Sequence record: OP292222.1 | DNA from: Escherichia phage Esco_phi_B-01 | Length of the DNA stretch: 64,000 nucleotides | Strand: one strand, 5' to 3' | In this document: positions 1,270-58,690 of the stretch, piece by piece | How the letters are laid out: each line of letters starts with the position of its first letter | Numbering within the stretch: position 1 is the stretch's first letter | Translations under genes and position numbers: made by a program | The notes under the pieces: model-generated | What the model was told of the DNA's origin: nothing | Seen by the model: the letters and a program-made list of their open reading frames with translations, nothing else | Databases searched by the model: none

Positions 1270-3228
1270 TTATATTGTAATTGGTTCCAACTCTATAGTT
1301 GTGTACTGAGGACGAAGGTCATCTTCAAATACGATTAAAGAACCGTCTTTGGTAAAGATGTTGTCTTGGTCTGGTCCTGCATAAAGTTCAATAGACTGGA
1401 CTTCAAAACGGTCGGAAGTAAGGCCTATCGCGGCGATATCCCAGAAAATAAAGTCTGAGTAATAATCAATTTCGCCAATAACATAGTAGACCGATTGGTC
1501 TGCAGGAGCTGCCATTTTATCGAAGTCATCTCCGGTATAAGGTTGGATGTATTGGTTTTCAATTACATCACCTGGACGGAAAGGACCTATAACCATTTTA
1601 CCATCGCCTCGTTCGTCTTTATCTGTGGCAACAATACGTACGTTATAAGATTTAATATCATCCGATACGTTTGTTGGGACGAACTCAAATTCACTAGAAG
1701 TTACAGAACGGTTGGTGTATTGATTATAGTATTTAATACCTGCTTCAGGTGTTTTGAAGAAGTTTAATACCTCGCGAACCATTGTTACCGTAGCCGAAGA
1801 GCCAAGGATACTGTGGTCTGCATTATCAATATAAGTCAGCATTTTAGACTTGGCAAATCCATGGTTGAATATTTCAACTTCGTTAATATAATAACGGTCT
1901 ATTTGAGAAAGGATTTGAGCCGTTAGCCATTGTTCGGATTCCTGTAATTTGTTCAGTGCATATGAAACCTTAATTTTATGCTTTAAGAACAAGTAGTCTG
2001 GAGAAATAACCGAAGGAGTAATAGGCGCCAAGTTAAATTCTGAAAGATAATTTTGGATATCTTCACGTTGAACCGCAGTCAAATACAATCCTGATTTAGG
2101 TTTAATAGTAACAAAGGCGTAACCTGGTTTATTTGGGTCCGTAAAGGTTTGTACTGCTTGTACAATAGAACCAAATCGCTCTGAAACGAATGTATCATAA
2201 TCCGTACCAGTTACGGCACGCATCTGGGCTTCGCGTTTAACTACAGCTAGTTCACGAATACGTTCGATATCTTCAGGGTCACCGCCACCATCAGCACCTA
2301 CATAATCCGGATTCCCATCATAGTTTTCTGTAATTTTTTCAACCGTAATATATGCCAAAGAATCCGCATAACTAAAGTCCACTGCGCCGTTAGCAACTTC
2401 ACCATCGGTACGAAGATATTCTATAACAATGGTAGCATCTTTAACAGGTTTTAAACCGCCAATATAATTAGCTTCTAATACACCGCCCGCAACTGATTTT
2501 TCGGCAACGCCTTCACCAAAGAAGAATTCGGTATTACCATCTACGGTTTCACGCATATAGTAAATGGTTGATGTACTACCGGCATGAACCATGGATTTAT
2601 TAGTCCAGTTAGTCCATTCTGCACCATCGACATAAAGTTTAACTTCTTGTCTATCAATATCCGGGTCACGAATAAGAATAGGGGTTTTAGGGTCGTACTT
2701 AAGTTCGGTACGAATAATACGACCTTGTGCTAAAGATACAATAGGGAGATATTGGTTATTAACATCACGTACGGCAATAACGTTTTCCGTGGTAACAAAA
2801 GCATACGGGTCTGCCGAAGTATCACGAGCATAGGCCAAGAATTTAGTACCACGTGGGATACGAATATTCTTTTCATTCAGGGCCTGAGTACAGGTCAACA
2901 TAATACTTGTTTTTGCCGCGGATTTGGAACTAGGAAGGTATCCGTTATCTTGTGCAGCCTGGACAACCGAAGAACGAAGGTTTGCCGTTCCTATAAAAGA
3001 CTCGTATAAAGCTGTGTTAGCAAATTGCTGTATATAAAGAGTATTATAAGCAAGCATATCAATAAGGATATTCATTCGAGAACCAACGAAATCATAATCC
3101 TTAAATTCTTCCTGGCTGGAAAGCCAATCGATAATATTCTTTTTAATTTCTTCAAACGTAGCTCCCACAAATACTTTTGGGATAGCGTTAACGGTTCTTG
3201 TTAATTGGTAATTCGTAGGAGTAGCCAT
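1270..3228 (-). CDS. 6: baseplate wedge protein gp6
   Basis: 652 aa ORF (T4 gp6 about 660 aa); position between 5.4 and 7. Confidence 0.85.
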   Translation of the reverse strand: MATPTNYQLTRTVNAIPKVFVGATFEEIKKNIIDWLSSQEEFKDYDFVGSRMNILIDMLAYNTLYIQQFANTALYESFIGTANLRSSVVQAAQDNGYLPSSKSAAKTSIMLTCTQALNEKNIRIPRGTKFLAYARDTSADPYAFVTTENVIAVRDVNNQYLPIVSLAQGRIIRTELKYDPKTPILIRDPDIDRQEVKLYVDGAEWTNWTNKSMVHAGSTSTIYYMRETVDGNTEFFFGEGVAEKSVAGGVLEANYIGGLKPVKDATIVIEYLRTDGEVANGAVDFSYADSLAYITVEKITENYDGNPDYVGADGGGDPEDIERIRELAVVKREAQMRAVTGTDYDTFVSERFGSIVQAVQTFTDPNKPGYAFVTIKPKSGLYLTAVQREDIQNYLSEFNLAPITPSVISPDYLFLKHKIKVSYALNKLQESEQWLTAQILSQIDRYYINEVEIFNHGFAKSKMLTYIDNADHSILGSSATVTMVREVLNFFKTPEAGIKYYNQYTNRSVTSSEFEFVPTNVSDDIKSYNVRIVATDKDERGDGKMVIGPFRPGDVIENQYIQPYTGDDFDKMAAPADQSVYYVIGEIDYYSDFIFWDIAAIGLTSDRFEVQSIELYAGPDQDNIFTKDGSLIVFEDDLRPQYTTIELEPITI

Positions 3229-3236
3229 TTTAATTC

Positions 3237-3530
3237 CTATTTTATGAATACTTTAGATGAGGCTTGTGCGACTGTATCTCCGCACGAAATAGGGTCTGCC
3301 ATTTGGACAGCCTTTTTGCCTGTAACATATACCTTTGATGTTCTAGGTTGGGTTACCCCACCGTGGGTTTTATATGGTTTTTTAATTTCTGTATGAGGAG
3401 TTATTGGGTCCCCATCGACTAATACAGGAATGCCGCCTGTAAATACTTTACCCTGGGTGGCATTTATTACTGTAGGAGGCCATGCTTCATGACCTGCTGT
3501 TACGCATTGATTATAACTTAAGCCCGACAT
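3237..3530 (-). CDS. 5.4: PAAR-repeat spike tip protein gp5.4
   Basis: 97 aa, same size and position as T4 gp5.4. Confidence 0.75.
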
Positions 3531-4111
3531 TATGGCCTCGCATATACATATTCTCTGAGTTGATTAGCCCATTTACTCCAATTACCCACTATAACCTTGG
3601 TATAAACCTTAGTAAGAGTTTTTCTTACCGGTGCTGGAGGAGGGTCGGTTTCGTTACCGGCTCTAGAATTACTTCCTCCTGAGTTCCCTGTATCACCTCC
3701 TGATGACTCTTCCTGAAAGTCATAGATTAATGTGACGGTATAGGAAAAAGTCTTCTGAAGATTACCAGGGGCTTTCCAGAGGTATAATTGAGTGCTCTTG
3801 TCCTCTGGTAAATCTTTCCATGAACCTGCTGTTTTAAATTCATCACCTAATCGATATTTTAACGCATCTTCAGAAAATCCGAATACCGATTCATAGGTTC
3901 CGTATAAACGAGCCCCATCGACAATAATGCCTTCTGTTGGCTCATATTCTGTTATATTTATTTCAACTAATGTTTCGTTTGTTTCTAATTGAGCGGTAAA
4001 CGTAACATCGATTGAGGCTCCTTCCATGGAGTCTCCTAAATCTGTGCTCATAGGTAAAATATTAGCCAATGTCAATCCTCGAACCATCAATAGTATATTG
4101 ACCGGACGCAA
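3530..4111 (-). CDS. hypothetical protein at the gene 5.1 position; true start probably internal (about 4027-4051)
   Basis: ORF between gp5 and gp5.4; the 5' end overlaps the gp5 C-terminus, so an internal Met is the likely start. Confidence 0.5.
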
Positions 4112-5804
4112 TAGAACTCATAGTCGACATAGTTTCAGACCAATTACCCGCAACGGTCATATCGACGTTTCCGTTTACCGACCACTTAACATTTCCATTT
4201 ACTGTATAATCATGGTTGCCTTCGACTAAGGTTTTTGCATCACCTTTAACAGTTATATCGGCATTGCCTTCAACAATAACCGTAACATTTCCTTTAACAA
4301 TAAGGGTCCCGTCGCCTTCTACCGTTTTGGTTTCATTACCACGAATATGGATGCTTTCAGAACCGTCGGTTTGACGACGAACGTTTGCCATATTATAATA
4401 GGTTTCATCGCCACCTATATTGACTTTATTATTACCACCAACATAAGTATTAGAATCGCCTTGGGTCATATAATACCCGTCGGCTACTGTCTTAGAAGTT
4501 TTACGTCCGTCAGGAGCGACTTCTTCGTAACTACCTGTAGGGTGGATTAATCGGTAACGTTCTTGCCCTGGGGTGTTATCGAATTCTTGGATATGCCCAC
4601 CTTCAGTTTGCATGGTTTGGACATATGGGTATTCGCCTTTATAACTAGAATCCGGCTCTTTAAAAAGAATCCTTGTATCTTCCGGAGTCCACGGGTCGGC
4701 AGGGTCAGAATTTGTAGGGGCTGCAAAGGTTTGAATCATCCTATAAGAACGGCCATTAAATTCTCTTTCTTTAGGGGCCATAATACCGTATGATTCCATA
4801 TTACCTGTAAGGATAATCATTGATACCCTTGATGCTCGGCCTTTAGTTTGGTTGAACCATACTGAATTGCGAGCTTCCTCAAATGCCTTTTTATAATCAC
4901 CTATTAGCATTGCACTGAGCATACCACGGAATTTAGCAAGCCCACCTAAACCCATTTGGAAGGCCATGTTTTCAAGAGCCATTTGTCTTGAACGGTTTTC
5001 TTTATTGTAAACAGGACCTACAACACTATGCCTGCCTATATCGTTTTGAACTTTTTTAAGGTCTTCTTGGAATAATTTAGAGGCCTCGTCCATTGATATT
5101 GCACCCGGGTTTCCTTTAACTTCACGACCTATTTGATTAGATAATATTTTGTTTATCTGATTCATATCTCTAATAGGTTGTGGTGTAATAAGGTGACCTA
5201 TACCAATAGTAGGGTATCCTTCGGTATCCCAATATACCTTCAGACGAAGACCCTCATCACGATGAAGCATGTTTTCTATTGTGAAATTAGGATTATCATC
5301 AGGCTTAACTTGGCTTAAATCTAATCCATCCGGATTAATACCTACATCAGTGTTTGCATCTTGTATTACGTTAGAAGTGGCATCATATCCAACTTCACCA
5401 CCTCGGTTTAGTGCAGCGGCATCATTACCTAAATAAAGTGGATACTGCCCTGTAGGGTCACTAAAACCTTCGTTTGGATTTGCCTTTTGTTTTGAAGCCG
5501 AACCATATGTGCCGAGGACAAGCCCGTTTAATTTCCACTTATCAAGAAAGTGTCCGTAAACTTGTGTACCTGGGACCATACCAGTCATAGCGGTTTGGAT
5601 ACCTGAAACAGAGGCGGAAGATGTAGGCATTAATACCGACATCCATGGTAAATCTTCTGTACGAAGGCCTTTTACAGGACCTTGTACTTTTTCATATGGA
5701 TGCATACCCCAGACGCGTACGCGTACTCGGCCCTGTTTGAGTGGGTCCATTCGGTCTTCAACTACACCGACGAACCAACTTAAATTATCAGACATGTTAA
5801 TCAT
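4062..5804 (-). CDS. 5: baseplate hub / cell-puncturing protein gp5 with lysozyme domain
   Basis: 580 aa; central segment LRLKVYWDTEGYPTIGIGHLI resembles T4 lysozyme; C-terminal VxGN repeats typical of the gp5 beta-helix. Confidence 0.9.
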   Translation of the reverse strand: MINMSDNLSWFVGVVEDRMDPLKQGRVRVRVWGMHPYEKVQGPVKGLRTEDLPWMSVLMPTSSASVSGIQTAMTGMVPGTQVYGHFLDKWKLNGLVLGTYGSASKQKANPNEGFSDPTGQYPLYLGNDAAALNRGGEVGYDATSNVIQDANTDVGINPDGLDLSQVKPDDNPNFTIENMLHRDEGLRLKVYWDTEGYPTIGIGHLITPQPIRDMNQINKILSNQIGREVKGNPGAISMDEASKLFQEDLKKVQNDIGRHSVVGPVYNKENRSRQMALENMAFQMGLGGLAKFRGMLSAMLIGDYKKAFEEARNSVWFNQTKGRASRVSMIILTGNMESYGIMAPKEREFNGRSYRMIQTFAAPTNSDPADPWTPEDTRILFKEPDSSYKGEYPYVQTMQTEGGHIQEFDNTPGQERYRLIHPTGSYEEVAPDGRKTSKTVADGYYMTQGDSNTYVGGNNKVNIGGDETYYNMANVRRQTDGSESIHIRGNETKTVEGDGTLIVKGNVTVIVEGNADITVKGDAKTLVEGNHDYTVNGNVKWSVNGNVDMTVAGNWSETMSTMSSIASGQYTIDGSRIDIG

Positions 5805-35607: not shown

Positions 35608-36618
35608 ATGACTCGTACTGAATACATCAATGCCTTTACTAAGTATATCACTGACAATACCCCTCCATTAACCCCATATATGGTAATAGTTTCTAATATC
35701 AATAAATGGGTAGACCAAATTGATGATGCATTATCGCGCTGTTTCAAAGCTGAAATAGAAAAGATTGCAGGGCGTTTGTTTATTCCTGATATCGTAGATA
35801 CATTTAAAGGTTCTCGACTGCTTTCTCGACTGGTCAATAAGGACATCCTTTCTGAGTTCGGTAAAGAGAAATATCCGGGTTCTAACCATGTTGTTAGCTA
35901 CAAATGGTTTGGTGATACCATAAAAGATTATGTCAAAATTAAAGGTATGGACCCTAGTAGTTTATTTCCGCAACGTTGGGTTAGCGAATTCAAGGCTAAC
36001 TCTGCATTAATTCTCAAAGCGGCCTCTAAAACTATAGTTTCCGGTGATTGTCGTACTATTCACCCGATGGCTAATTGCATGATTAAAACAAATAGTTATA
36101 AAGGAAAAGCTATTATTTCTGTTATTTGGTCGCCTAATAGGAAACCTAAAGATGATGCGGAAGTTGTAAAGTATCAAGATATTGCTTACGATACCTTGAA
36201 TACTATCGAACAAGCCTTAGCTTTGATGGATACAGTAGAGAAATATGAGACCCAAGAAGTTAAACACCACTTAGGCTGGAAAGGATATGAAGTTTTAGTA
36301 ACAGTTCGCGAAATCAAATGGCCTGTTCCAAAAACTGACGCTGAAATTTACCAAGAAAAATGTGAGGAAATTGTGAATACTGATAAAGAGCCTGCTACAT
36401 TAGAAGACTTGATTAACGACTTGAACAGCCCTATCATGGCCCATACACCAATTACTAAATCCAAGTTACCGGAAATCGTTGCCTTAGAAAAAGCGTATAA
36501 AGATGCCCTTGCTATCAACAAAAAACTGACCGGACAATATACCGCTGCCAAGAAACTTTGGGAAGAGTCTACCAATCGTTTAGACCGTCTTGAACAGGCT
36601 CTGGAGCTGTTGAAATGA
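35608..36618 (+). CDS. hypothetical protein
   Basis: 336 aa from the ATG after GAGGAGAATATC. Confidence 0.5.
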   Translation: MTRTEYINAFTKYITDNTPPLTPYMVIVSNINKWVDQIDDALSRCFKAEIEKIAGRLFIPDIVDTFKGSRLLSRLVNKDILSEFGKEKYPGSNHVVSYKWFGDTIKDYVKIKGMDPSSLFPQRWVSEFKANSALILKAASKTIVSGDCRTIHPMANCMIKTNSYKGKAIISVIWSPNRKPKDDAEVVKYQDIAYDTLNTIEQALALMDTVEKYETQEVKHHLGWKGYEVLVTVREIKWPVPKTDAEIYQEKCEEIVNTDKEPATLEDLINDLNSPIMAHTPITKSKLPEIVALEKAYKDALAINKKLTGQYTAAKKLWEESTNRLDRLEQALELLK

Positions 36619-36926
36619 AACAGCGTTTAGCTGAAGATATTGCTTCAGCATCTAATACCGGTTTATTGAAATTTATTAAAGCCGAGGATGTTGAAGTTGA
36701 ATTGGTTGGTAAAATTCATGGTTGTGATGATTATGGTGATGCCGTTAATTGGGATGCAGTAATGGCTATGGTCGCACGACGAGAACAAGCTTCTAAGAAT
36801 GTTCCTAACTGTCCTAAGTGTGGCACAGAACAGGTTCAATTGGTCCATTGGCAAACCAGTAATCTTCGATATAAATGCCGCCATTGCAAACACAAATTTG
36901 AGCGAGACGAAAATGGCAAAGCGTAA
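36615..36926 (+). CDS. zinc-ribbon protein (hypothetical)
   Basis: CPKCGTEQ...CRHCKHKF C4 arrangement. Confidence 0.5.
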
Positions 36927-37149
36927 AGAATATGTAGAGGCTGCCGATAAGGCAGTCCGCGAACTTACTCTGGCTTATTATAAAGAGCATGGTAAATTTC
37001 CGGACAGTTATTCAGTATTGAAATCTGCTTTAACTCGTTCGTATAATAATATACTATCTGATGTGTATGATTTAAAATACGAACACCTAGAAAAATATGG
37101 AACAGAACTTGACCGTTCTGAAGCATTCAAACAAGTATTAGGAATTTAA
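36913..37149 (+). CDS. hypothetical protein
   Basis: internal ATG of track ORF 36799, overlapping upstream stop. Confidence 0.45.
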
Positions 37150-37992: not shown

Positions 37993-38166
37993 ATGAGTAC
38001 CAAAATTGAAGTTGGCCGTCATAAAGGCCGTCTGATTGAACATTCTCTTTACGAGTTATCGGATTCGGGTTCTTTACCTGACCTAGAGTCCGATTTGATT
38101 AAAGCTGCAGCCGATTATATTCATTGGCTTGAAGCTCAACTCCGCTTTTCTGATGAGGCCTTCTGA
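37993..38166 (+). CDS. hypothetical small protein
   Basis: 57 aa ORF below the track cutoff; GGAG 7 nt upstream; stop overlaps next ATG. Confidence 0.4.
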   Translation: MSTKIEVGRHKGRLIEHSLYELSDSGSLPDLESDLIKAAADYIHWLEAQLRFSDEAF

Positions 38167-38468
38167 TGAATTTATTTGAATTTGAAGGTAAAACTGTTCG
38201 TATTACTAAAGAAGATGTCGACCATTATGTTGACTGGCCTGAATTAAACGGCAATCGCGGTTTTGAGTCAGGCGAGCTCTGTGAAGGTGCTGAAGTTAAA
38301 ATCTTGAAGGTGGAGATTTCTCCGTGGGGCAATCCTGAAATCATTGGCGTAACTGCTATCGAATTCAATGGTAAGGTATACGAATACACTAAAGAAATGT
38401 TTGAAGATACTAAAGCTTCATTCTGGTGTTTTTGGACTAACGATGATAATGAATTTGAGGTCGCATGA
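38166..38468 (+). CDS. hypothetical protein
   Basis: 100 aa. Confidence 0.5.
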   Translation: MNLFEFEGKTVRITKEDVDHYVDWPELNGNRGFESGELCEGAEVKILKVEISPWGNPEIIGVTAIEFNGKVYEYTKEMFEDTKASFWCFWTNDDNEFEVA

Positions 38469-38650
38469 AAACTGTATTAGTCTATACTGAAAAGTTAAAT
38501 GGTGACAAGGTCTGGAAACTTCTTATCAAAGGAAGTCCTAATGACCAGTTTATGGCTACCTGCGTAGGATTATACACTCGTCCTACCAAAAAGATGATTC
38601 GTCAATTTAAACGGTTACACCGTATGTTTTACGGTACATTTGAAAAATAA
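38465..38650 (+). CDS. hypothetical basic protein
   Basis: 61 aa. Confidence 0.45.
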   Translation: MKTVLVYTEKLNGDKVWKLLIKGSPNDQFMATCVGLYTRPTKKMIRQFKRLHRMFYGTFEK

Positions 38651-40561: not shown

Positions 40562-40855
40562 ATGGGTAAAACTATCCGTCGTAAAGAATTGCCATCTAGA
40601 GATTTTAATTGCATTGCTAGACGTAAAGCACCTGATGGCGTATCGGAAGAAACTTTGAATGAAAATATCTTCCGGTCAGATAAATGGAAACGCTTTAGCG
40701 GTGTTGATTCTGAAGTTAAGAATGAAATGAATCGCCAACTTCGTAAAGAAGTGAGAAAGCTGAAAAAAGATGTTTACAACGACGATGAACCTGATTACAA
40801 TACTTCTCATCGAGTTGCAAAACGTAAATCAAACGAGTGCTATCGTTACAGCTGA
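40562..40855 (+). CDS. hypothetical basic protein
   Basis: 97 aa. Confidence 0.5.
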   Translation: MGKTIRRKELPSRDFNCIARRKAPDGVSEETLNENIFRSDKWKRFSGVDSEVKNEMNRQLRKEVRKLKKDVYNDDEPDYNTSHRVAKRKSNECYRYS

Positions 40856-42182: not shown

Positions 42183-42740
42183 ATGACCGAAATTAAACTG
42201 ACTAAAAATAACTATGTAAATAATAAGGAGCTTCTGAAAGCCATTACCCAGTGGAAAACGGAACTCCGAGAAAATACCGACCCTAATAAAATAGTTCGTC
42301 AGAACGACGTTATCGGCTTGGCTATTATGCTCATTGCTGAAGGCCTTTCTAAGCGTTTCAACTTCTCCGGATATACCCAATCTTGGAAGCAAGAAATGAT
42401 TGCTGATGGAATCGAAGCTTCTATTAAAGGCCTTCACAACTTCGACGAAACAAAATACGACAACCCACATGCATATATCACTATGGCTTGTTTTAATGCC
42501 TTTGTTCAGCGTATCAAGAAAGAACGTAAAGAAATGGCAAAGAAATACAGCTACTTCGTCCATAACGTTTATGACGCTAATGACGACGACATGGTAGGTA
42601 TCGCAGATGAAACTTTTATCCAGGATATTTACGACAAAATGACTCAGTACGAAACCTCTTTAGTTAAAGCGCCAGGGTCTGATAAGAGCGCCGAATCTAA
42701 AGTTGGTGAGCTGGATTTTTTATATGGAACTCAAGATTAA
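42183..42740 (+). CDS. 55: late sigma factor gp55
   Basis: 185 aa; NYVNNKELL...[55 protein letters not shown] closely matches T4 gp55. Confidence 0.9.
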
Positions 42741-42952: not shown

Positions 42953-43264
42953 ATGCAAAGCACCGACATTTCTCAATTGACTGAAGAGCAAATTGAAGAA
43001 GCCCAGAAGCGTTTAGAAGAGAATAATGCTAAAGAAGCCGCTTCTCAAGCTGCCAAAATTCTTAAAAAGAATGCCCGTGAAATTAAGCGTCTTAATACCC
43101 ATGCTCAGGGCGCTGTTCTTGAAAACAATTTCGAAGCTTACAAATATGCTATAATTAAATTACGTGGTATTTACCGTCAACCAACTACTGACGAAATCGT
43201 TAGAGTTATGTGGGAAACTACGCGTAAACAGATTTGGGAAATTATCAATGGCGCTAGTAAATAA
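42953..43264 (+). CDS. hypothetical protein
   Basis: 103 aa. Confidence 0.5.
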   Translation: MQSTDISQLTEEQIEEAQKRLEENNAKEAASQAAKILKKNAREIKRLNTHAQGAVLENNFEAYKYAIIKLRGIYRQPTTDEIVRVMWETTRKQIWEIINGASK

Positions 43265-43448
43265 ACCCTTTAAACGGCTTCTTATTGGAGCCGCCTTCAG
43301 ACTTCGCTCATACGGTAATATTTGTATTAAGCAGACTGAAACCGAATATAAAATGGTTGGGCAGTATTCCGATGAAATTTTTCGGATTGAGCCTGTAGCC
43401 AAGGTTTGGGTGGATTCACATCAACTTAAGAAGTGGTGGCAACGATGA
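43248..43448 (+). CDS. hypothetical basic protein
   Basis: in-frame ATG overlapping upstream gene end. Confidence 0.4.
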   Translation: MALVNKPFKRLLIGAAFRLRSYGNICIKQTETEYKMVGQYSDEIFRIEPVAKVWVDSHQLKKWWQR

Positions 43449-43603
43449 TAACATGGACTGCCGGTTAATGAATGACGAATACGAAAAAGTTTAAGAGGTG
43501 TATTATGACTATTGATGATGTAGATATTCTTACTTCCGACGAATTAAAACGATTGGGTAATATATTTCAAGACGAACATCCTGATTTTTAAGAGGTCATA
43601 TGA

Positions 43604-43777
43604 ATGACGAATTCGACGGATTTTGATAAGATTAAATCTGACAAAAATGAGATGATACTTAAATTTGAAGCTGCTCGTATTAAAGCGGAAAATGAAGGTA
43701 CTATTACCTATAAGCCTATCAAGTTCAGGTCTTCTCATGAACCTCTGTACGGGGTATTAATTGGTAAAGGAGCTTAG
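43604..43777 (+). CDS. hypothetical small protein
   Basis: 57 aa ORF below the track cutoff; AAGAGG upstream; ends inside the terminator hairpin. Confidence 0.35.
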   Translation: MTNSTDFDKIKSDKNEMILKFEAARIKAENEGTITYKPIKFRSSHEPLYGVLIGKGA

Positions 43778-43789
43778 GCTCCTTTTTTG
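43768..43789 (+). terminator. rho-independent terminator
   Basis: GGAGC-TTAG-GCTCC plus TTTTTT. Confidence 0.65.
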
Positions 43790-43817
43790 CTTTATATTCG
43801 GATGATAAAATGAATTT

Positions 43818-44435
43818 ATGAAATACATCACATACCTGACAATATATTCCGGGACTAAGCTTCCACCGTTTTATATAGGGTCCACCACTTTAGAGAAGCA
43901 TTTGAATGGATACCACGGAAGTGTCCTTTCTAAAGCGTATAAAGAAATCTATAAAAACGAGCTTTTAGAGCATCCTGAACTATTTGACTCATGTATTGTA
44001 AGTGAACATCCCACAAGAGAAGAGGCTTTAGAAGCTGAAAGAATGTACCAGTTAAGAACTGATGCAGCTCAAAATCCTTTATTCTTTAATAGGGCTATTG
44101 CCGCCCCTAAAGGGTTCTTCGGGCTTTCGCTACCTAAAGAGCATCACCCTCTTTACGGCTCTCATAATGCCAAAGGGTATATTCATTCCTATAATCCTGT
44201 TACATTAGAACAGACCTTTGCACCTACGGTCCCTGAAGGATATGTAGAAGGTCGTTCTCCTAATTATAAAGCATCTAGTCACAATAAGGGCAGGAAGTGG
44301 TATAATAACGGAATAGAACATAAACTGATTAATCCGTCTAATATTCCTGATGGATGGGTCAAAGGCAAACTTCCGGGCTCGGCTTCTAAAGCCGCCTCTA
44401 AAATGTGGGAACGAATACGTAATGAAAATTCTTAA
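43818..44435 (+). CDS. GIY-YIG homing endonuclease (Seg-like)
   Basis: N-terminal KYITYLT...FYIGST (GIY-YIG-type), conserved R and E downstream; basic C-terminal DNA-binding-like region; sits where T4 has alpha-gt. Confidence 0.6.
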   Translation: MKYITYLTIYSGTKLPPFYIGSTTLEKHLNGYHGSVLSKAYKEIYKNELLEHPELFDSCIVSEHPTREEALEAERMYQLRTDAAQNPLFFNRAIAAPKGFFGLSLPKEHHPLYGSHNAKGYIHSYNPVTLEQTFAPTVPEGYVEGRSPNYKASSHNKGRKWYNNGIEHKLINPSNIPDGWVKGKLPGSASKAASKMWERIRNENS

Positions 44436-45444
44436 TACAGGCGACTGGCACCTTGGAGTTAAGAACGACGACCCTTGGGTCCAAAACATTCAATTGACCG
44501 GCATTAAAGATGCTATCAATTATTCTAAAGCAAATGGTATTACTGTATGGATTCAATACGGTGATATTTTTGATGTCCGTAAAGCCATTACTCATAAGTG
44601 TATGGAATTTGCTCGGCATATTTCAGATTTGCTTAAAACCAATGGCATCACCATGTATACCATTGTTGGTAACCATGATGCCCACTACAAAAACACCCTA
44701 ACTCCGAATGCTGCTTCTGAAGTTCTGGGTAAATATGACCATATCAAGGTTATTGAGAAACCTACTACGGTTAACTTTGATGGCACCGAAATTGATTTGA
44801 TTCCATGGATGTGTGAAGAAAACACGACTGATATCATGGACCATATCAAAAATACCACAGCAGATTTCTGTATTGGTCATTGGGAATTAAATGGTTTCTA
44901 TTTCTATAAAGGAATGAAATCTCACGGTTTAGAACCTGATTTCCTTAAAAAGTATAAGCAAGTTTGGTCAGGCCACTTCCATACTATTTCTGATGCAGCA
45001 AACGTCAAGTACATTGGTACTCCATGGACCCTTACTGCAGGCGATGAGAACGACCCTCGTGGTTTCTGGATTTTCGATACCGAAACTCATAAAATGGATT
45101 TCATCATTAACGAAACCTGTTGGCATCGTAAGATTCATTATCCTAATGCGACTATCGATTACAAAGATTTTACAAATATCGCAGTTCGTGTTATAGTCGA
45201 TAAAATCGATGACGGCCTTACTAAGTTTGAATCAGAACTTGAAAAGGTTGTTCACTCTTTACGTATTGTGTCTAAGGTAGATAATAGTGTTGATATCGAT
45301 GATTCTGAAGAGGAAGATGAAGTTAAATCCCTCTTGGATATGATGTATGATTATATCGACGCCCTTCCTGATGGCCACACTGAAGAAGACGTTAAAGCCC
45401 TTAAGACTATGGCCGCACAACTTTATAATGAGGTTACACGATGA
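44422..45444 (+). CDS. 47: recombination endonuclease subunit gp47 (Mre11-like)
   Basis: N-terminal MKILNTGDWHLG phosphoesterase motif; 340 aa; upstream of gene 46. Confidence 0.85.
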   Translation: MKILNTGDWHLGVKNDDPWVQNIQLTGIKDAINYSKANGITVWIQYGDIFDVRKAITHKCMEFARHISDLLKTNGITMYTIVGNHDAHYKNTLTPNAASEVLGKYDHIKVIEKPTTVNFDGTEIDLIPWMCEENTTDIMDHIKNTTADFCIGHWELNGFYFYKGMKSHGLEPDFLKKYKQVWSGHFHTISDAANVKYIGTPWTLTAGDENDPRGFWIFDTETHKMDFIINETCWHRKIHYPNATIDYKDFTNIAVRVIVDKIDDGLTKFESELEKVVHSLRIVSKVDNSVDIDDSEEEDEVKSLLDMMYDYIDALPDGHTEEDVKALKTMAAQLYNEVTR

Positions 45445-45704
45445 CTTTAGATGAATTCAAAAAATCGGGACTTGAACTGGAACACGACTGTATAGTTATT
45501 GACGATGATGGCCAACCTAGTACAATTAAGTTCTGGTTTGAAGCCGTGAGCACTCGTGATACCGGCGAGCTTATTAAAGTTTATGTTGCTACCGATTGGG
45601 CTGTAGAATTTAGCTTTAATGTAATGGTAGATGATACTCCAGAAACATTAATTCATATGGCTGAATCATGCATCAAGGATGCGTATAACGATGAAGACTT
45701 TTAA
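45441..45704 (+). CDS. hypothetical protein
   Basis: 87 aa between 47 and 46. Confidence 0.45.
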   Translation: MTLDEFKKSGLELEHDCIVIDDDGQPSTIKFWFEAVSTRDTGELIKVYVATDWAVEFSFNVMVDDTPETLIHMAESCIKDAYNDEDF

Positions 45705-54455: not shown

Positions 54456-54515
54456 GCAATAGAAATTTATTAAAAATAGTGTATAATGTACCTACATTCA
54501 CTTGAGGAACAGATA

Positions 54516-56189
54516 ATGAAAAAGGTTGTTATTTTAGGCGCAGGTCTTGGCTCACGGTTGTATCCAATTACTAACGAAATCCCGAAGGTATTGGTTAACT
54601 ATAAACAACATACGGTATTAAAGCATTTGTATGATTTGTATAGTAACCAATCAGATGAAATTATTCTGGTTATTCACAGCAAATTTAACGACCTCGTTAA
54701 AGGCTATATTAAATCCATTAACATGATTACTGGTGATAAGCCTAAATTCACTATTCGTAACGTTGATGTTGCTAATGGTTCAGCTCATGCAATCGATTGC
54801 ATTGCCGAAGATATCATTGGCCATAATGTCCTGTTTAACTGGTGTGACATCATTCCTATCGGTCATAAAGTTGAATGGGGTAACGACTACTGTTATACCT
54901 ATGGAACTGACTGTCGTTTTACATTTGAAGAACCGTACTTACGTGAAATTGGTACTGGTGGCGGTGTAGTTGGTTTGTATCAGGTAGCCAATTGGACAGG
55001 TTTCGACCGTTCTAATTATGGTGAAGACCTTGCTGATAACCTGGATTCAATGGTCTATTTGACCGAACGTAAACTGGATTTTGTAGTTGATGTCGGTGAC
55101 AAATTGAAACTGGCTAAGGCCCATGAAGAATCTGAAATTAACCGTGAATTTAATAAATTAGAATTCACCGAGAATCTGGCTATTAAAGTACCAACTAACG
55201 AATTAGGTAAAGAAATTCAATCTAAAGAAATCAATTGGTATAATTCTATTGATTCTGAATTCGTTCCTAGCATTGTAGACTTTTCTCCAGGCGAATTCAT
55301 TAAAATGGAACGTATCTTTGGTCGAACCATGGCAGATGCCTACCGGTTTATGTCCAAAGAAACTAAAGTCCTCATGGTTTATAAGGTCATTAGTGCATTA
55401 CGTTCATTTGGTGGAACTATTGATAACCCGTCCGATGAGCAATGGTATTCCGATGTTAAGAAAGAAGTATTGGACAAGGTCCTTATTCGTAATGCTTCTA
55501 TTGCTGGATTGATTGAAGGCTTTGCTCCACAGGGCATTACCCATGTTAACGATTTCAAAGTAGGCGACCCTGAAAAACTTCTTCGCCATGCACTAGAAAT
55601 TCTGTCTGAACATAAAGAACCGTACCAACTTATTCATGGCGACCCGCACTACAGTAATATTATGCTGTCGGACGAAGGTGATATTAAAATCATCGACCCA
55701 CGTGGTTATTTCGGTAATAGTTCTAAAGGCCCTGCGATTTATGATGAAGCTAAGGTGCTTTATTCTATCGATGGCTATGACAAATTTAACTCAGACCCTC
55801 TATGGGGCGGATTAACTCGTAACGGAACTCGTGTATTCGTTGATATCGAAAAGATTATGCCTTTAGACGATATCCCTATGTGCACATTTAAGCACAAGCT
55901 CTGGATTGCTGTTATTTGGATGGCTCTGGCAGGTTACTTTAAGAATAACCCTCTGAAAGCTCTAGGTGCTTATTATAACGGTTTGTACCAACTGAGTGTG
56001 CTGCTGAAGCGGCATCCTCGTAAGCGTAAGCTTATTACGGGTGAATTTGTCGATGAAGTTCGTGACCCTATTACGGCTCAAATTATTACTCGTTGTCCTG
56101 ATAAGTGGGTTTTGCTTGACCAGGAAACTGGTGTAAAATATAAACCTACAGGTTCTACTGAACTCCACAAACAATGGAAGAAAATTTAA
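54516..56189 (+). CDS. bifunctional nucleotidyltransferase / small-molecule kinase fusion
   Basis: N-terminus KVVILGAGLGSRLYPITNEIPKVLV fits sugar-phosphate (LicC/MurU/RmlA-type) nucleotidyltransferases; C-terminus LIHGDPHYSNIM...IIDPRG fits the APH/choline-kinase-like catalytic loop. Confidence 0.6.
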   Translation: MKKVVILGAGLGSRLYPITNEIPKVLVNYKQHTVLKHLYDLYSNQSDEIILVIHSKFNDLVKGYIKSINMITGDKPKFTIRNVDVANGSAHAIDCIAEDIIGHNVLFNWCDIIPIGHKVEWGNDYCYTYGTDCRFTFEEPYLREIGTGGGVVGLYQVANWTGFDRSNYGEDLADNLDSMVYLTERKLDFVVDVGDKLKLAKAHEESEINREFNKLEFTENLAIKVPTNELGKEIQSKEINWYNSIDSEFVPSIVDFSPGEFIKMERIFGRTMADAYRFMSKETKVLMVYKVISALRSFGGTIDNPSDEQWYSDVKKEVLDKVLIRNASIAGLIEGFAPQGITHVNDFKVGDPEKLLRHALEILSEHKEPYQLIHGDPHYSNIMLSDEGDIKIIDPRGYFGNSSKGPAIYDEAKVLYSIDGYDKFNSDPLWGGLTRNGTRVFVDIEKIMPLDDIPMCTFKHKLWIAVIWMALAGYFKNNPLKALGAYYNGLYQLSVLLKRHPRKRKLITGEFVDEVRDPITAQIITRCPDKWVLLDQETGVKYKPTGSTELHKQWKKI

Positions 56190-56572
56190 TGTCGTATCGA
56201 GTAGAAAATAAGCCACATTTATGTTTTGATATCGATAACACAATCACGATTTGGAACCATGACCGTGATTATGAGAACTTTAAACCGGACACCGAAATGG
56301 TGTCCATGATTAATAAGCTTTATGATGAAGGGTACGAGATTACATTGTTCACCGCGCGTGGCATGACTTCATGTGGCCCAGGTCGAATCTTGGTTGAAGT
56401 AGTTCCTGCCTTGGTTAAGAACCTTGAAAAAATTGGATTGAAATATCACAATTTGCTTACACATAAGCCGAGTTATACTTTTATCATCGATGACCGAGCA
56501 ATCCGTCCTGACCACTTTAAAGAAATGGTTCGTGAAGGAACTCTTGATGGTTATAAGGCCTATCATCCATGA
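56189..56572 (+). CDS. HAD-superfamily phosphatase-like protein (alternative start 56174)
   Basis: motif I CFDIDNTIT (DxDxT), motif II ITLFTARG, motif IV FIIDDRA. Confidence 0.55.
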   Translation: MSYRVENKPHLCFDIDNTITIWNHDRDYENFKPDTEMVSMINKLYDEGYEITLFTARGMTSCGPGRILVEVVPALVKNLEKIGLKYHNLLTHKPSYTFIIDDRAIRPDHFKEMVREGTLDGYKAYHP

Positions 56573-57105
56573 ATCCAAAAATCATTGTTATAGACGGCCC
56601 GGATAATTCCGGGAAGTCCACTTTAATTAAAAATCTGTTATCCAATAAGAAATACCGCCTTATTGATTTTCCTAAAAAGATTAATGGCAAGTGTATTTCA
56701 TTAGGAACTGATAACGATAAGGCTTTAGTTGAAACTCTGTATAAGTTTTTAGACCCTAATTTCGTTTATATCCTTGACCGTGGTTATCCAAGTAATATTG
56801 TTTACTCAGGATTCCTTCGTGGTGAAATGGACCCTTATGTAGAACTGGAAGATTGGAAAGGGTTTAAATCTGAATTTAACGTTATCGAGGTTATTTTAAC
56901 TCGCAACCCATTAGACGAAGACTTCGAAGACGACCTTATTAAATTAACCGAAGATGAGTTCAACCTAACTATCCGGCAATACGAAACATGTTTTGAAAAC
57001 GTGTTTAAAATCTTAAATCATGACGGCCATAATAATTTGCTTAATGTTGATATGGTAGAATTAAAACGTCTGAACGAATATATTGAAAATAAGGTGAATA
57101 AATGA
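56569..57105 (+). CDS. P-loop nucleotide kinase-like protein (thymidylate-kinase-like)
   Basis: IVIDGPDNSGKST P-loop at the N-terminus; 178 aa. Confidence 0.5.
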   Translation: MNPKIIVIDGPDNSGKSTLIKNLLSNKKYRLIDFPKKINGKCISLGTDNDKALVETLYKFLDPNFVYILDRGYPSNIVYSGFLRGEMDPYVELEDWKGFKSEFNVIEVILTRNPLDEDFEDDLIKLTEDEFNLTIRQYETCFENVFKILNHDGHNNLLNVDMVELKRLNEYIENKVNK

Positions 57106-57800
57106 AACACATTACCGCTGTTAGTTTTGAAAATGCATTTAAACAAATGAACGAAGAAATCCTGGAAGCTCCACAGTTTGCAGTTGATTCTCGTATCGGA
57201 CGTTGTTATGAAATTGGTTCTGCTTCGGTAGAAGTACTGGATGCAAGCACCTATAAATTCACCGACCCACGTATTAATCGTATTAGTTATGAATATGCCG
57301 AATCCTTTTGGAAATTTATGATTTCTGGTGGTACTGACGCTGCCGAAGCATTTAAGGAATACCCTAATGTTGCTAAGTTCATTGATAAGCCGAAAAGTGA
57401 CGTATTGCCTGCAAACTTCAACACTTTCTATGGACCTCGAATTGTGGCCCAACTCCCAGCCCTACTTAAAGAGCTTAAAGAAAAGGCTAACTCGCGAAGA
57501 GTTGTGTTCCAGATTCTCCAAGAACAAGACCAAGCCCTCCTTGATTCTGACGAATCCTTAGAATATCCGTGTACCGATTCGGTAACGTATTATATTCGTG
57601 ACGGACGTTTGTATGCACACACCCATATGCGTTCACAGAACTGCGCTGTTGTTATGCAGCTGGATTTCTATCTGCAGGGTAAACTGATGGCATTTATTGC
57701 TGAACAGTGTGGTGTCGGTTTAGGTACATATTCCCACACCATGGTAAGTGCACACGTGTTTGAACGCGATTTTGACTACGTCCGAGGTTTCCTGAAATGA
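57102..57800 (+). CDS. 42: dCMP hydroxymethylase gp42
   Basis: catalytic region EYPCTDSVTYYIRDGRLYAHTHMRSQNCAVV aligns with T4 gp42 DFMCTNTVQYLIRDKKINAVVNMRSNDVVFG. Confidence 0.8.
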   Translation: MKHITAVSFENAFKQMNEEILEAPQFAVDSRIGRCYEIGSASVEVLDASTYKFTDPRINRISYEYAESFWKFMISGGTDAAEAFKEYPNVAKFIDKPKSDVLPANFNTFYGPRIVAQLPALLKELKEKANSRRVVFQILQEQDQALLDSDESLEYPCTDSVTYYIRDGRLYAHTHMRSQNCAVVMQLDFYLQGKLMAFIAEQCGVGLGTYSHTMVSAHVFERDFDYVRGFLK

Positions 57801-58690
57801 GTTTGTTTATCGTTCCTATTTTCAGTATGCGTAGTTACGAAACAGGTGAATATGCCGTCCTTAAGGACGGCAATTTTCAACTCCATTTAAATCGTGCTCG
57901 TCCAGGTGATTATCTGGCTTATCCTAGAAATTCGAGCGATATCAAAGAATGCATTGAATTATTCCCGGAACTGAATTTCGTACCACTTTGGTATAAAGAA
58001 AATGCTTATGAAACCCGTAAACATTTCTGGTCTGAAAATGAGTTTGTAGTCGATTCACTAATCGAATACTACGATTGCTCAGGACTGGTAACTGATATCA
58101 CCGGTTATGATGGTGCTCACACTGTACAATTCAACTTTAATATCACAATGGACCCTGAAGTTCCTCGTTATTATATCGACGAGTTCATTGATATTGATGT
58201 GGCTTCAGTTGAACGTTCACTTTATACTACAGTCCTGAATCAATGCCAGAAAGACGTCCTGGTGTCACGAGGTGCATCCTCTGATAAGATTTTTGTAGAC
58301 CAAAAGGTAATTAATCCTGCAGTAATTGAGCGTTACTCTGAAGGTCTAGCGCCTATTAAAATTGATGGTATTTTCCATCCATTCCGTATTTCGGATAAGT
58401 GCTATCAATTCGAAAGAGTTGTAGACCAAGCTGCCGCTGAAGGTGCTCGTCTTTATATCACTGACCCGAATGATTCATTTAAGCGTGAAGACTATCGTCC
58501 TGATGTAGAGATTATTAAATTCAAACCGAGTAAGGTTGAATATTATCAAATTCTGAAATCAAGACCACATATCATTTATCATGAGAACCCAGGTTTAGTA
58601 TTCCATCCTGGTCTGGCTGAATTCATTTATTTCGGTGCCAATATTCATTCTGAATACGAAATGCCACGTTATGAGGACGTAGTATGCTAG
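57797..58690 (+). CDS. hypothetical protein at the beta-gt position (candidate DNA glycosyltransferase)
   Basis: 297 aa between gene 42 and uvsX, where T4 has beta-glucosyltransferase; no recognisable similarity to T4 beta-gt by eye. Confidence 0.4.
   Translation: MSLFIVPIFSMRSYETGEYAVLKDGNFQLHLNRARPGDYLAYPRNSSDIKECIELFPELNFVPLWYKENAYETRKHFWSENEFVVDSLIEYYDCSGLVTDITGYDGAHTVQFNFNITMDPEVPRYYIDEFIDIDVASVERSLYTTVLNQCQKDVLVSRGASSDKIFVDQKVINPAVIERYSEGLAPIKIDGIFHPFRISDKCYQFERVVDQAAAEGARLYITDPNDSFKREDYRPDVEIIKFKPSKVEYYQILKSRPHIIYHENPGLVFHPGLAEFIYFGANIHSEYEMPRYEDVVC

Follow-up and report, generated by a model that had tools for sequence, protein, structure and literature searches.

The reading frame directly upstream of gene 47 in the DNA analysed here (64,000 nucleotides of Escherichia phage Esco_phi_B-01, record OP292222.1; hereafter the window) encodes a protein of the T4 Seg class with a predicted GIY-YIG fold, a family assignment that is settled by three independent lines: homology to Seg proteins, conserved residues and fold prediction. 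On this basis and by analogy with T4, we consider it highly probable that the frame is the gene of a free-standing Seg-class homing endonuclease, residing in a 607-bp cassette between the promoter/terminator region downstream of the a-gt.2 homolog and the start of gene 47, and that it has been spread by intronless homing. From its sequence it would be an ordinary Seg-type homing endonuclease gene, real and probably active. The initial annotation had tied this endonuclease to the lack of alpha-glucosyltransferase (alpha-gt) in the window; these two features are now separated. The features of the region are as follows.

42183-42740: gp55, the late sigma factor (phrog_234, E 3e-68)
after gp55: four small genes, homologs of T4 a-gt.5, a-gt.4, a-gt.3 and a-gt.2 (DUF5491, DUF2654, phrog_1648, DUF5486)
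43604..43777, + strand: a-gt.2 homolog, 57 aa (Pfam DUF5486, E 4e-20; phrog_2140; 98% identical to JS98 a-gt.2)
43766..43791, + strand: intrinsic-terminator-like hairpin AAAGGAGC-TTAG-GCTCCTTT plus T run (scan, MFE fold)
43788..43811, + strand: predicted T4 middle-promoter-like site (MotA box TGCTTTA, 11-nt spacer, -10 TAAAAT)
43815..44421, + strand: 607-bp cassette, not in JS98 or dhaeg (blastn break points, multiple alignment, annotations)
43818..44435, + strand: Seg-type GIY-YIG homing endonuclease gene as assigned by homology, 205 aa plus stop, ATG start (phrog_10820, E 2e-92; phrog_314, 'homing endonuclease')
43818..44117, + strand: N-terminal GIY-YIG catalytic domain, aa 1-100 (invariant residues, predicted fold)
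44118..44432, + strand: basic C-terminal half, aa 101-205, presumed to bind DNA (SegE-like; includes WYNNG...IPDGWVKGK)
44422..44435, + strand: 14-nt overlap of the endonuclease 3' end with the gene 47 start
44422..45444, + strand: gene 47, SbcD/Mre11-like recombination nuclease subunit, 340 aa (phrog_100, E 2e-134; Pfam Metallophos)
44422..44800, + strand: gene 47 patch of ~380 bp that departs from the JS98 backbone (sliding identity, alignment, blast)

The polymorphic cassette ahead of gene 47

The window is Dhakavirus DNA, with 98–100% identity to Escherichia phage JS98 on both sides of the reading frame over the ~20 kb compared; its closest overall match is Ec2-ASingh, an unverified partial record. 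The a-gt.2 homolog is the final conserved gene ahead of a variable slot that ends at gene 47, the product of which is 69.5% identical to T4 gp47. According to the T4 record, the order in that phage is 55, a-gt.5, a-gt.4, a-gt.3, a-gt.2, mobB, alpha-gt, 47.1, 47. Homology to JS98 ends at 43814 and restarts at 44422, boundaries that are exact to a few bases, and where the window has the cassette, JS98 has 157 bp with gene 47.1, a predicted membrane protein of 47 codons. In dhaeg the slot holds neither 47.1 nor the endonuclease and presents a clean empty site with a 57-bp gap. Altogether, the slot occurs in four states within Dhakavirus: with 47.1 (JS98, JS10, EcWhh-1), empty (dhaeg), with the 205-aa gene (the window, IME08, IME540, QL01, NC-G, Ec2-ASingh), or with a 284-aa variant (KIT01, LQ5, SHP1, vB_EcoM_005) whose first ~163 residues are as in the 205-aa form and are followed by a different, longer C-terminus. 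Most Dhakaviruses in the database are without the endonuclease gene, and in JS98 and JS10 no homing endonuclease genes were counted (Petrov et al. 2010, PMC2993671). Outside the genus, homologs that are 58–67% identical stand directly upstream of gene 47 or overlap it in Klebsiella phage EI, Erwinia FBB1, Salmonella SEA1 and many Tequatroviruses (AndreasVesalius, ESh30), and this comparison of sequences places the insertion at the 5' edge of gene 47 irrespective of what stands upstream. The gene is intergenic, shares the orientation of its neighbours and is sporadic among close relatives. Its earlier description as a mobile-element marker is supported by its presence or absence among phages that are otherwise 97–100% identical, by the sharp boundaries and by the use of the same site in several genera. 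The GC content of the cassette (0.39–0.425) is not distinct from that of the flanks, and a compositional sign of foreign origin is absent. The four slot states provide a natural series for the study of intronless homing and marker exclusion at gene 47.

The frame was confirmed at 43818..44435 (+), with 205 aa and the GIY-YIG-type N-terminus MKYITYLT...PPFYIGST, and the overlap with the start of gene 47 that had been reported for it was borne out as well, the stop codon (44433-44435) lying 14 nt inside gene 47. The true gene 47 start is the ATG at 44422, from which the product begins MKILNTGDWHLG and is colinear with T4 and JS98 gp47; a 364-aa gene 47 frame from 44350 was therefore discarded as an artefactual N-terminal extension. 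The same over-long gp47 is annotated in the IME08 record, in which the endonuclease gene is unannotated. A search for flanking single-nucleotide differences within Dhakavirus returned a single consistent distinction between endonuclease-plus and endonuclease-free phages, namely codons 3–5 of gene 47, which read ATT CTT AAT here versus ATA TTA AAC in endonuclease-free relatives. This synonymous difference arises because the overlapping stop codon of the endonuclease gene forces it; neither Tequatrovirus nor Klebsiella phage EI follows this pattern.

Compared with the IME08 and QL01 orthologs, the gene has 32–34 synonymous and 3–5 nonsynonymous differences, corresponding to a dN/dS of 0.022 (IME08) and 0.034 (QL01) at a dS of ~0.3; for the 162 N-terminal codons that it has in common with the KIT01 variant, dN/dS is 0.031. 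As judged from these substitution patterns, purifying selection on the protein is strong throughout its length, and the synonymous excess together with the 248 database homologs of the 205-aa protein identifies 43818..44435 as a genuine gene and no chance reading frame. No paralogs of the endonuclease were found within the 64-kb window.

Downstream of the cassette, the window is 80% identical to JS98 over 44400-44599 and 90% over 44600-44799 before identity returns to 97–98%, and the upstream flank (98.5% in 43600-43799) stays JS98-like until the cassette begins. In blast searches, this gene 47 patch was 85.8% identical to JS98, 95.0% to dhaeg and 96.3% to Ec2-ASingh, to which it is close; over 44440-44613 it is identical to dhaeg, itself endonuclease-free. 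The patch may possibly represent a recombination or co-conversion tract, short of proof, and comparably divergent stretches without a nearby endonuclease are found at other places in the 20 kb (35800-36199, 36600-36999, 40600-40799). For the 284-aa variant we had considered that the C-terminal swap in KIT01 was brought in together with a gene 47 5' end from another genus; this idea was dropped, as the KIT01 5' haplotype is 99.3% identical to that of endonuclease-free Bp7. Since for either endonuclease variant the adjoining 5' haplotype of gene 47 thus also occurs in endonuclease-free phages, there is no flanking signature diagnostic of homing.

The route by which the cassette would have spread can be outlined by analogy with the pairs SegE/uvsW, SegG/gene 32 and SegF/gene 56, in each of which the endonuclease cuts the gene named, SegG doing so at a distance from where it is inserted (PMC2988022). 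In a mixed infection, the enzyme would cut the allele of a related phage that lacks the endonuclease, at the 5' end of gene 47 or close to it; the break would then be resected and repaired by the phage recombination machinery with the endonuclease-bearing genome as template, so that the recipient would gain a copy of the cassette along with some of the adjoining gene 47 sequence, resulting in intronless homing and marker exclusion. What we infer here from the T4 precedents is that the protein is catalytically active, that its target is within gene 47 or adjacent to it, that homing takes place, and how the gene is expressed. In the literature searched, no Seg enzyme at gene 47 had been named or assayed.

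What maintains the gene may be viewed differently. Instead of being purely selfish, the nuclease might be kept for the benefit of the phage, either as a weapon against competing relatives through marker exclusion or as an aid to recombination near genes 46/47. A dN/dS of 0.02–0.03 would be very strong selection for a supposed parasite, the same lineage has been retained at the same site in several genera, and the stop/start overlap embeds the gene in the transcription and translation context of gene 47, which would make its precise loss costly; marker exclusion by Seg enzymes has, moreover, been described (Edgell review, PMC2988022). Against this stand the majority of database Dhakaviruses, which are evidently viable without the gene, and the clean empty site in dhaeg. 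We therefore rate a phage benefit as the less likely account of the gene's persistence, though one to be taken seriously. Such a benefit would overlap with the homing mechanism and differs from it in what maintains the gene.

Terminator-like hairpin, predicted promoter and possible modes of translation of the endonuclease gene

The frame was said to follow a terminator, and a terminator-like hairpin is indeed found 32 nt upstream. It has an 8-bp stem (43766-43785) with 4 G-C pairs, is followed by a T run and forms in the MFE fold. Although it is the sole such site in 43300-44700, shuffled sequences contain 1.1 on average, so that it is statistically unexceptional when taken alone. The hairpin is base-for-base identical in Ec2-ASingh, IME08, QL01, KIT01, dhaeg and JS98, that is, in endonuclease-plus and endonuclease-free phages.

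The predicted middle-promoter-like site next to it conforms to the pattern TGCTTYA-N11-13-TANNNT, of which the window holds 8 occurrences against 1.7 expected, a number that 0 of 100 shuffles reached. Its sequence is common with endonuclease-free JS98 up to 43814, which marks it as a resident promoter, as predicted, of 47.1/47. With the -10 hexamer set at -12..-7, the predicted +1 falls on 43818, the A of the endonuclease ATG, and no Shine-Dalgarno sequence stands at normal distance from this ATG. The endonuclease would then be translated either from read-through transcripts only or as a leaderless mRNA. A scan for sigma-70 promoters gave 5 sites versus 4.7 in shuffles, hence no excess, and there is no late promoter TATAAATA in 43000-45500. 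The free-standing endonuclease genes of T4 have the same orientation as their neighbours, abut a conserved gene, have weak ribosome binding sites and use resident middle promoters (PMC2988022); by analogy, the layout seen here matches this reviewed pattern.

A bolder synthesis can be drawn from these elements. A single Seg lineage may have followed the 5' end of gene 47 through four or more T4-like genera in which cytosine is modified differently (as glucosyl-hmC in Tequatrovirus and as hmC without glucose, possibly arabinosylated, in Dhakavirus), under unusually strong selection as an inter-phage weapon, with the cassette spliced exactly at a MotA-type +1 such that a leaderless mRNA would provide for low-level expression at middle times. 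Taken as a whole, this scenario strikes us as rather improbable.

Family and fold of the 205-aa protein

The assignment to GIY-YIG endonucleases of the free-standing, T4-Seg-like type, which had been proposed from the N-terminus and a basic C-terminal half, is supported by comparison with the Seg proteins of the T4 record, by conserved residues and by the predicted fold. A search with the Pfam GIY-YIG model (PF01541) did yield a match to the 205-aa protein (E 0.0073), yet one of 17.0 bits, under the gathering score of 22.6; among 90 homologs, 18 are matched at E<=0.01, the best at 4.7e-4. The sub-threshold score is a limit of the sensitivity of the model and no biological criterion. An NCBIfam scan gave nothing relevant, and a single-sequence phmmer search of PDB sequences produced only noise. 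As these direct scans are weak or empty, the domain assignment rests on homology to Seg proteins plus the predicted fold.

In blastp comparisons, T4 SegE aligned with 27.8% identity over 198 aa (E 5e-10) and T4 SegG with 33% over 105 aa of the catalytic domain (E 1e-6). With a profile built from the 90-sequence family, hhalign matched SegE at a probability of 97.3% (E 2e-11, 170 columns), the match spanning the C-terminal half including the WxNNG...PDG[WF]xKG motif. The same profile matched I-TevI at 47% only, in a segment that holds E74, and when it was run against PDB sequences, its sole match was a NUMOD3-like stretch in the DNA-binding domain of I-TevI (E 0.028).

Across the 90 homologs, Y6, Y10, G12, P16, Y19, G21, Y32, E48, F56, E74 and N91 are invariant and R67 is nearly so. 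The GIY/YIG motifs are present as T-Y6-L ... Y19-I-G21, in the columns of the corresponding motifs of SegA-G and I-TevI, in a residue alignment that took in SegA-G, I-TevI and I-TevII; Y6, Y19-I-G21, E74 and N91 align with Y6, Y17-V-G19, E75 and N90 of I-TevI. A Seg-specific G-Y-x-G-S motif is present too, N-G-Y32-H-G34-S aligning with D-G-Y-[ML]-G-S. No Arg equivalent to the catalytic R27 of I-TevI is aligned; the segment is missing, likewise in all seven T4 Seg proteins. The AF2 model of the N-domain (residues 1-100; pLDDT 92–98) shows the order beta-beta-alpha-alpha-beta-alpha, in which helices flank a three-stranded sheet, and confidence over the C-terminal half is mixed. In a Foldseek search of the PDB, the top 3 matches were the I-TevI catalytic domain (probability 1.0), the next match having an E >1, and among the BFVD predicted viral structures there were 76 matches at E<=1e-3, the named ones being GIY-YIG, Seg-like or NUMOD3 endonucleases.

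The C-terminal half is basic as described before: residues 101-205 have a pI of 9.66 and a net charge of +6.3, compared with a pI of 6.4 for residues 1-100. In the homologs the C-termini have been exchanged, NUMOD3 being found in 61 of 90, and distant homologs, with NUMOD3 C-termini and at other loci, have only the catalytic domain in common with the protein; in the 205-aa protein itself, Pfam detected neither NUMOD3 nor another DNA-binding domain. As far as sequence comparison can tell, this exchange of C-termini is the modular pattern typical of such enzymes.

The sub-threshold Pfam score and the missing counterpart of I-TevI R27 could also be read as signs of a catalytically dead or degenerating GIY-YIG relic, now serving as a DNA-binding or regulatory protein or as a mere carrier of the gene 47 translation initiation region; I-TevI doubles as an autorepressor, which lends the regulatory variant a precedent. 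We regard such a relic as quite unlikely. The remaining GIY-YIG hallmark residues are invariant across the 90 homologs, the active T4 Seg enzymes equally have no aligned Arg at this position, and a dN/dS of 0.02–0.03 over the whole length, catalytic domain included, argues against decay. A probably active Seg-type endonuclease remains our preferred reading.

Absence of alpha-gt, related systems and database labels

In keeping with the initial annotation, the T4 record places alpha-gt in the 55–47 interval, and the window contains no alpha-gt-like reading frame: tblastn of T4 alpha-gt and beta-gt against its 64 kb gave no credible match. A weak alpha-gt match at 56339-56446 (36 aa, E 0.027) was rejected as spurious, since it lies inside a 132-aa HAD-phosphatase-like frame. 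From there it had been concluded that the endonuclease stands in place of alpha-gt and that this fits an altered DNA-modification chemistry. Comparison of the 55/47 junction across relatives does reveal differing junctions and a polymorphic cassette, and it contradicts the replacement: what the cassette replaces is the 157 bp of JS98 with gene 47.1, and JS98 and dhaeg, both endonuclease-free, are also without alpha-gt. According to Petrov et al. 2010 (PMC2993671), JS98-type phages have no glucosyltransferase homologs at all. Tequatrovirus AndreasVesalius has alpha-gt, 47.1 and an endonuclease homolog (61% identical), in this sequence, between a-gt.2 and gene 47, and in REP2, G9062 and 121/2022-2B the coordinates likewise place alpha-gt and an endonuclease homolog together. 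In the phage collection, homologs of alpha-gt form two identity bands, one of >=90% (T-even) and one of 60–80% (mainly Klebsiella phages), with no Dhakavirus homolog among the matches listed.

That the endonuclease displaced alpha-gt in connection with a change in modification chemistry could draw on the position of T4 alpha-gt in the same a-gt.2–47 slot, on the lack of both alpha-gt and beta-gt in the window, and on an RB69-like sugar-nucleotide gene set that adjoins gene 42 in the window. The endonuclease-free phages JS98 and dhaeg that also lack alpha-gt, the Tequatroviruses in which alpha-gt, 47.1 and an endonuclease homolog stand side by side, and the missing Dhakavirus entry among the listed alpha-gt matches all speak against it, and we consider a displacement very improbable. 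As JS98-type phages are without alpha-gt whether or not they have the endonuclease, the link to modification chemistry is not supported. Endonuclease-free phages without alpha-gt and the coexistence of both genes in Tequatrovirus imply that the presence of the endonuclease and the absence of alpha-gt are independent; by genome comparison, the latter is a property of the JS98 lineage and no consequence of the insertion. The occurrence of the same endonuclease lineage beside alpha-gt in Tequatrovirus makes this system suited to testing how Seg enzymes tolerate differently modified DNA.

Among known systems, T4 SegE resembles the protein in architecture: it also has 205 aa, can be aligned nearly throughout, carries the C-terminal WxNNG...PDG[WF]xKG[RK]L, and its gene lies directly upstream of a conserved DNA-metabolism gene in the same orientation. 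The two differ in their sites (uvsW versus gene 47), identity is ~28%, and the 205-aa protein does not match the Pfam SegE_GIY-YIG model. Of the T4 proteins compared, SegG comes nearest in the catalytic domain, with PPxYYIGS and EAERxYQL...NPxxFN in common, whereas its C-terminal half is unrelated; by analogy with SegG, the enzyme might be expected to cut within the conserved gene downstream, with co-conversion, here too. The I-TevI catalytic domain (PDB 1LN0/1MK0) is the structural archetype of GIY-YIG homing enzymes and the fold match found here, but I-TevI is intron-encoded, it includes the R27 segment and binds DNA through a zinc finger/HTH domain, and its sequence match to the protein is weak. 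T4 mobB occupies the opposite end of the same hypervariable a-gt.2–47 slot, between a-gt.2 and alpha-gt, and belongs to the unrelated HNH family, with no sequence similarity to the gene in the window. As mobB shows, homing endonuclease genes have, to judge from gene content, landed repeatedly in the a-gt.2–47 interval.

A true HNH endonuclease, as the RefSeq entry for QL01 and PHROGs family 10820 would have it, can practically be dismissed, for only these database labels favour it, whereas a Pfam scan found no HNH family even at E<=1, the leading fold matches are exclusively GIY-YIG nucleases, and the sequence homology is with SegE/SegG, the T4 Mob proteins giving no such match (mobB E 0.21). 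The HNH label is wrong in view of the Seg homology, the conserved residues and the predicted GIY-YIG fold. Several annotations are corrected by this analysis: the gene missing from IME08 and its over-long gp47, the HNH label in QL01 and PHROGs, and the Pfam GIY-YIG model that falls short of detecting the domain. The current understanding of homing endonucleases is left unchanged, some relatives already having the gene annotated as a homing endonuclease. Labels of the orthologs are inconsistent among records: at the same position, QL01 has an 'HNH endonuclease' (YP_009202791, 97.6% identical), Klebsiella phage EI a 'SegE homing endonuclease' (QEM42259, 67.5%) and AndreasVesalius a 'putative homing endonuclease' (QXV76024, 61%).

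Variants of the endonuclease and its slot

A longer form of the endonuclease occurs in KIT01 and also in LQ5, SHP1 and vB_EcoM_005:

KIT01 (L013) 2625-3479, endonuclease variant of 284 aa, which the KIT01 record begins at an internal start (2709)

Over the first ~163 residues, the KIT01 protein is ~98% identical to that of the window, with four nonsynonymous differences in 162 codons, and thereafter it continues into a longer C-terminus unrelated to the window's. The gene 47 5' end adjoining this variant shares only ~70% identity with that of the window and 99.3% with that of the endonuclease-free Bp7. At the other end of the protein, the endonuclease of Ec2-ASingh, the closest database relative of the window (record marked UNVERIFIED), diverges in its first ~25 codons (MFIVYLTIYGGDKLPPFYIGSTS...) and is nearly identical to the window's in the remainder; 181 bp of additional sequence follow the terminator, and these together with the divergent codons lie at about 2630-2890.

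In the Dhakavirus dhaeg, the slot is a 57-bp gap (2617-2673) that holds neither 47.1 nor the endonuclease, and the 5' end of gene 47 is identical to the window's across 44440-44613. Either the site is naive or the gap is a scar that a precise loss left. T4 carries mobB, an HNH homing endonuclease gene, inside its a-gt.2 to 47 slot (4886-5680), so homing endonuclease genes that are unrelated to each other have landed in this interval repeatedly.

Database records describe the locus unevenly. For IME08 (NC_014260), the endonuclease gene at 3125-3742 was left unannotated, and the gp47 annotation (3648-4751) is 27 codons over-long, starting inside the endonuclease. The label 'HNH endonuclease', attached to the ortholog in RefSeq QL01 and in PHROG 10820, is wrong, as this ortholog is a GIY-YIG protein.

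Short patches of the window also depart from the JS98 backbone (73–83% identity, or indels), with QL01 sometimes the better match:

35800-36199
36600-36999
38000-38599
40600-40799
43400-43599

They belong to the mosaicism found generally across the early-gene region, which has no relation to the endonuclease.

A middle-promoter-like site

A sequence resembling T4 MotA-box middle promoters was recognized by its pattern ahead of the endonuclease:

43788-43811, TGCTTTA-N11-TAAAAT

Its predicted transcription start, likewise pattern-based, would be 43818, the A of the endonuclease ATG. The identical sequence precedes 47.1/47 in the endonuclease-free JS98. In a scan of the window, the pattern was over-represented (8 matches versus 1.7 expected), the remaining matches being:

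12056, 13022, 16217, 26287 and 47564, + strand
35019 and 37641, - strand

Genes between gene 43 and uvsX

Relevant to the modification chemistry of the phage are five genes located between gene 43 (DNA polymerase) and uvsX, within 54486-58690:

567-aa nucleotidyltransferase/kinase-like ORF (phrog_4098)
132-aa HAD-phosphatase-like ORF
178-aa thymidylate-kinase-like ORF
gene 42, dCMP hydroxymethylase
297-aa ORF, function not assigned (phrog_3891), last of the five

T4 has beta-gt in the slot filled here by the 297-aa ORF. The 567-, 132- and 178-aa ORFs resemble the gene kinds of the RB69 arabinosyl-hmC set as given in PMC8056088, which cites Thomas et al. 2018.
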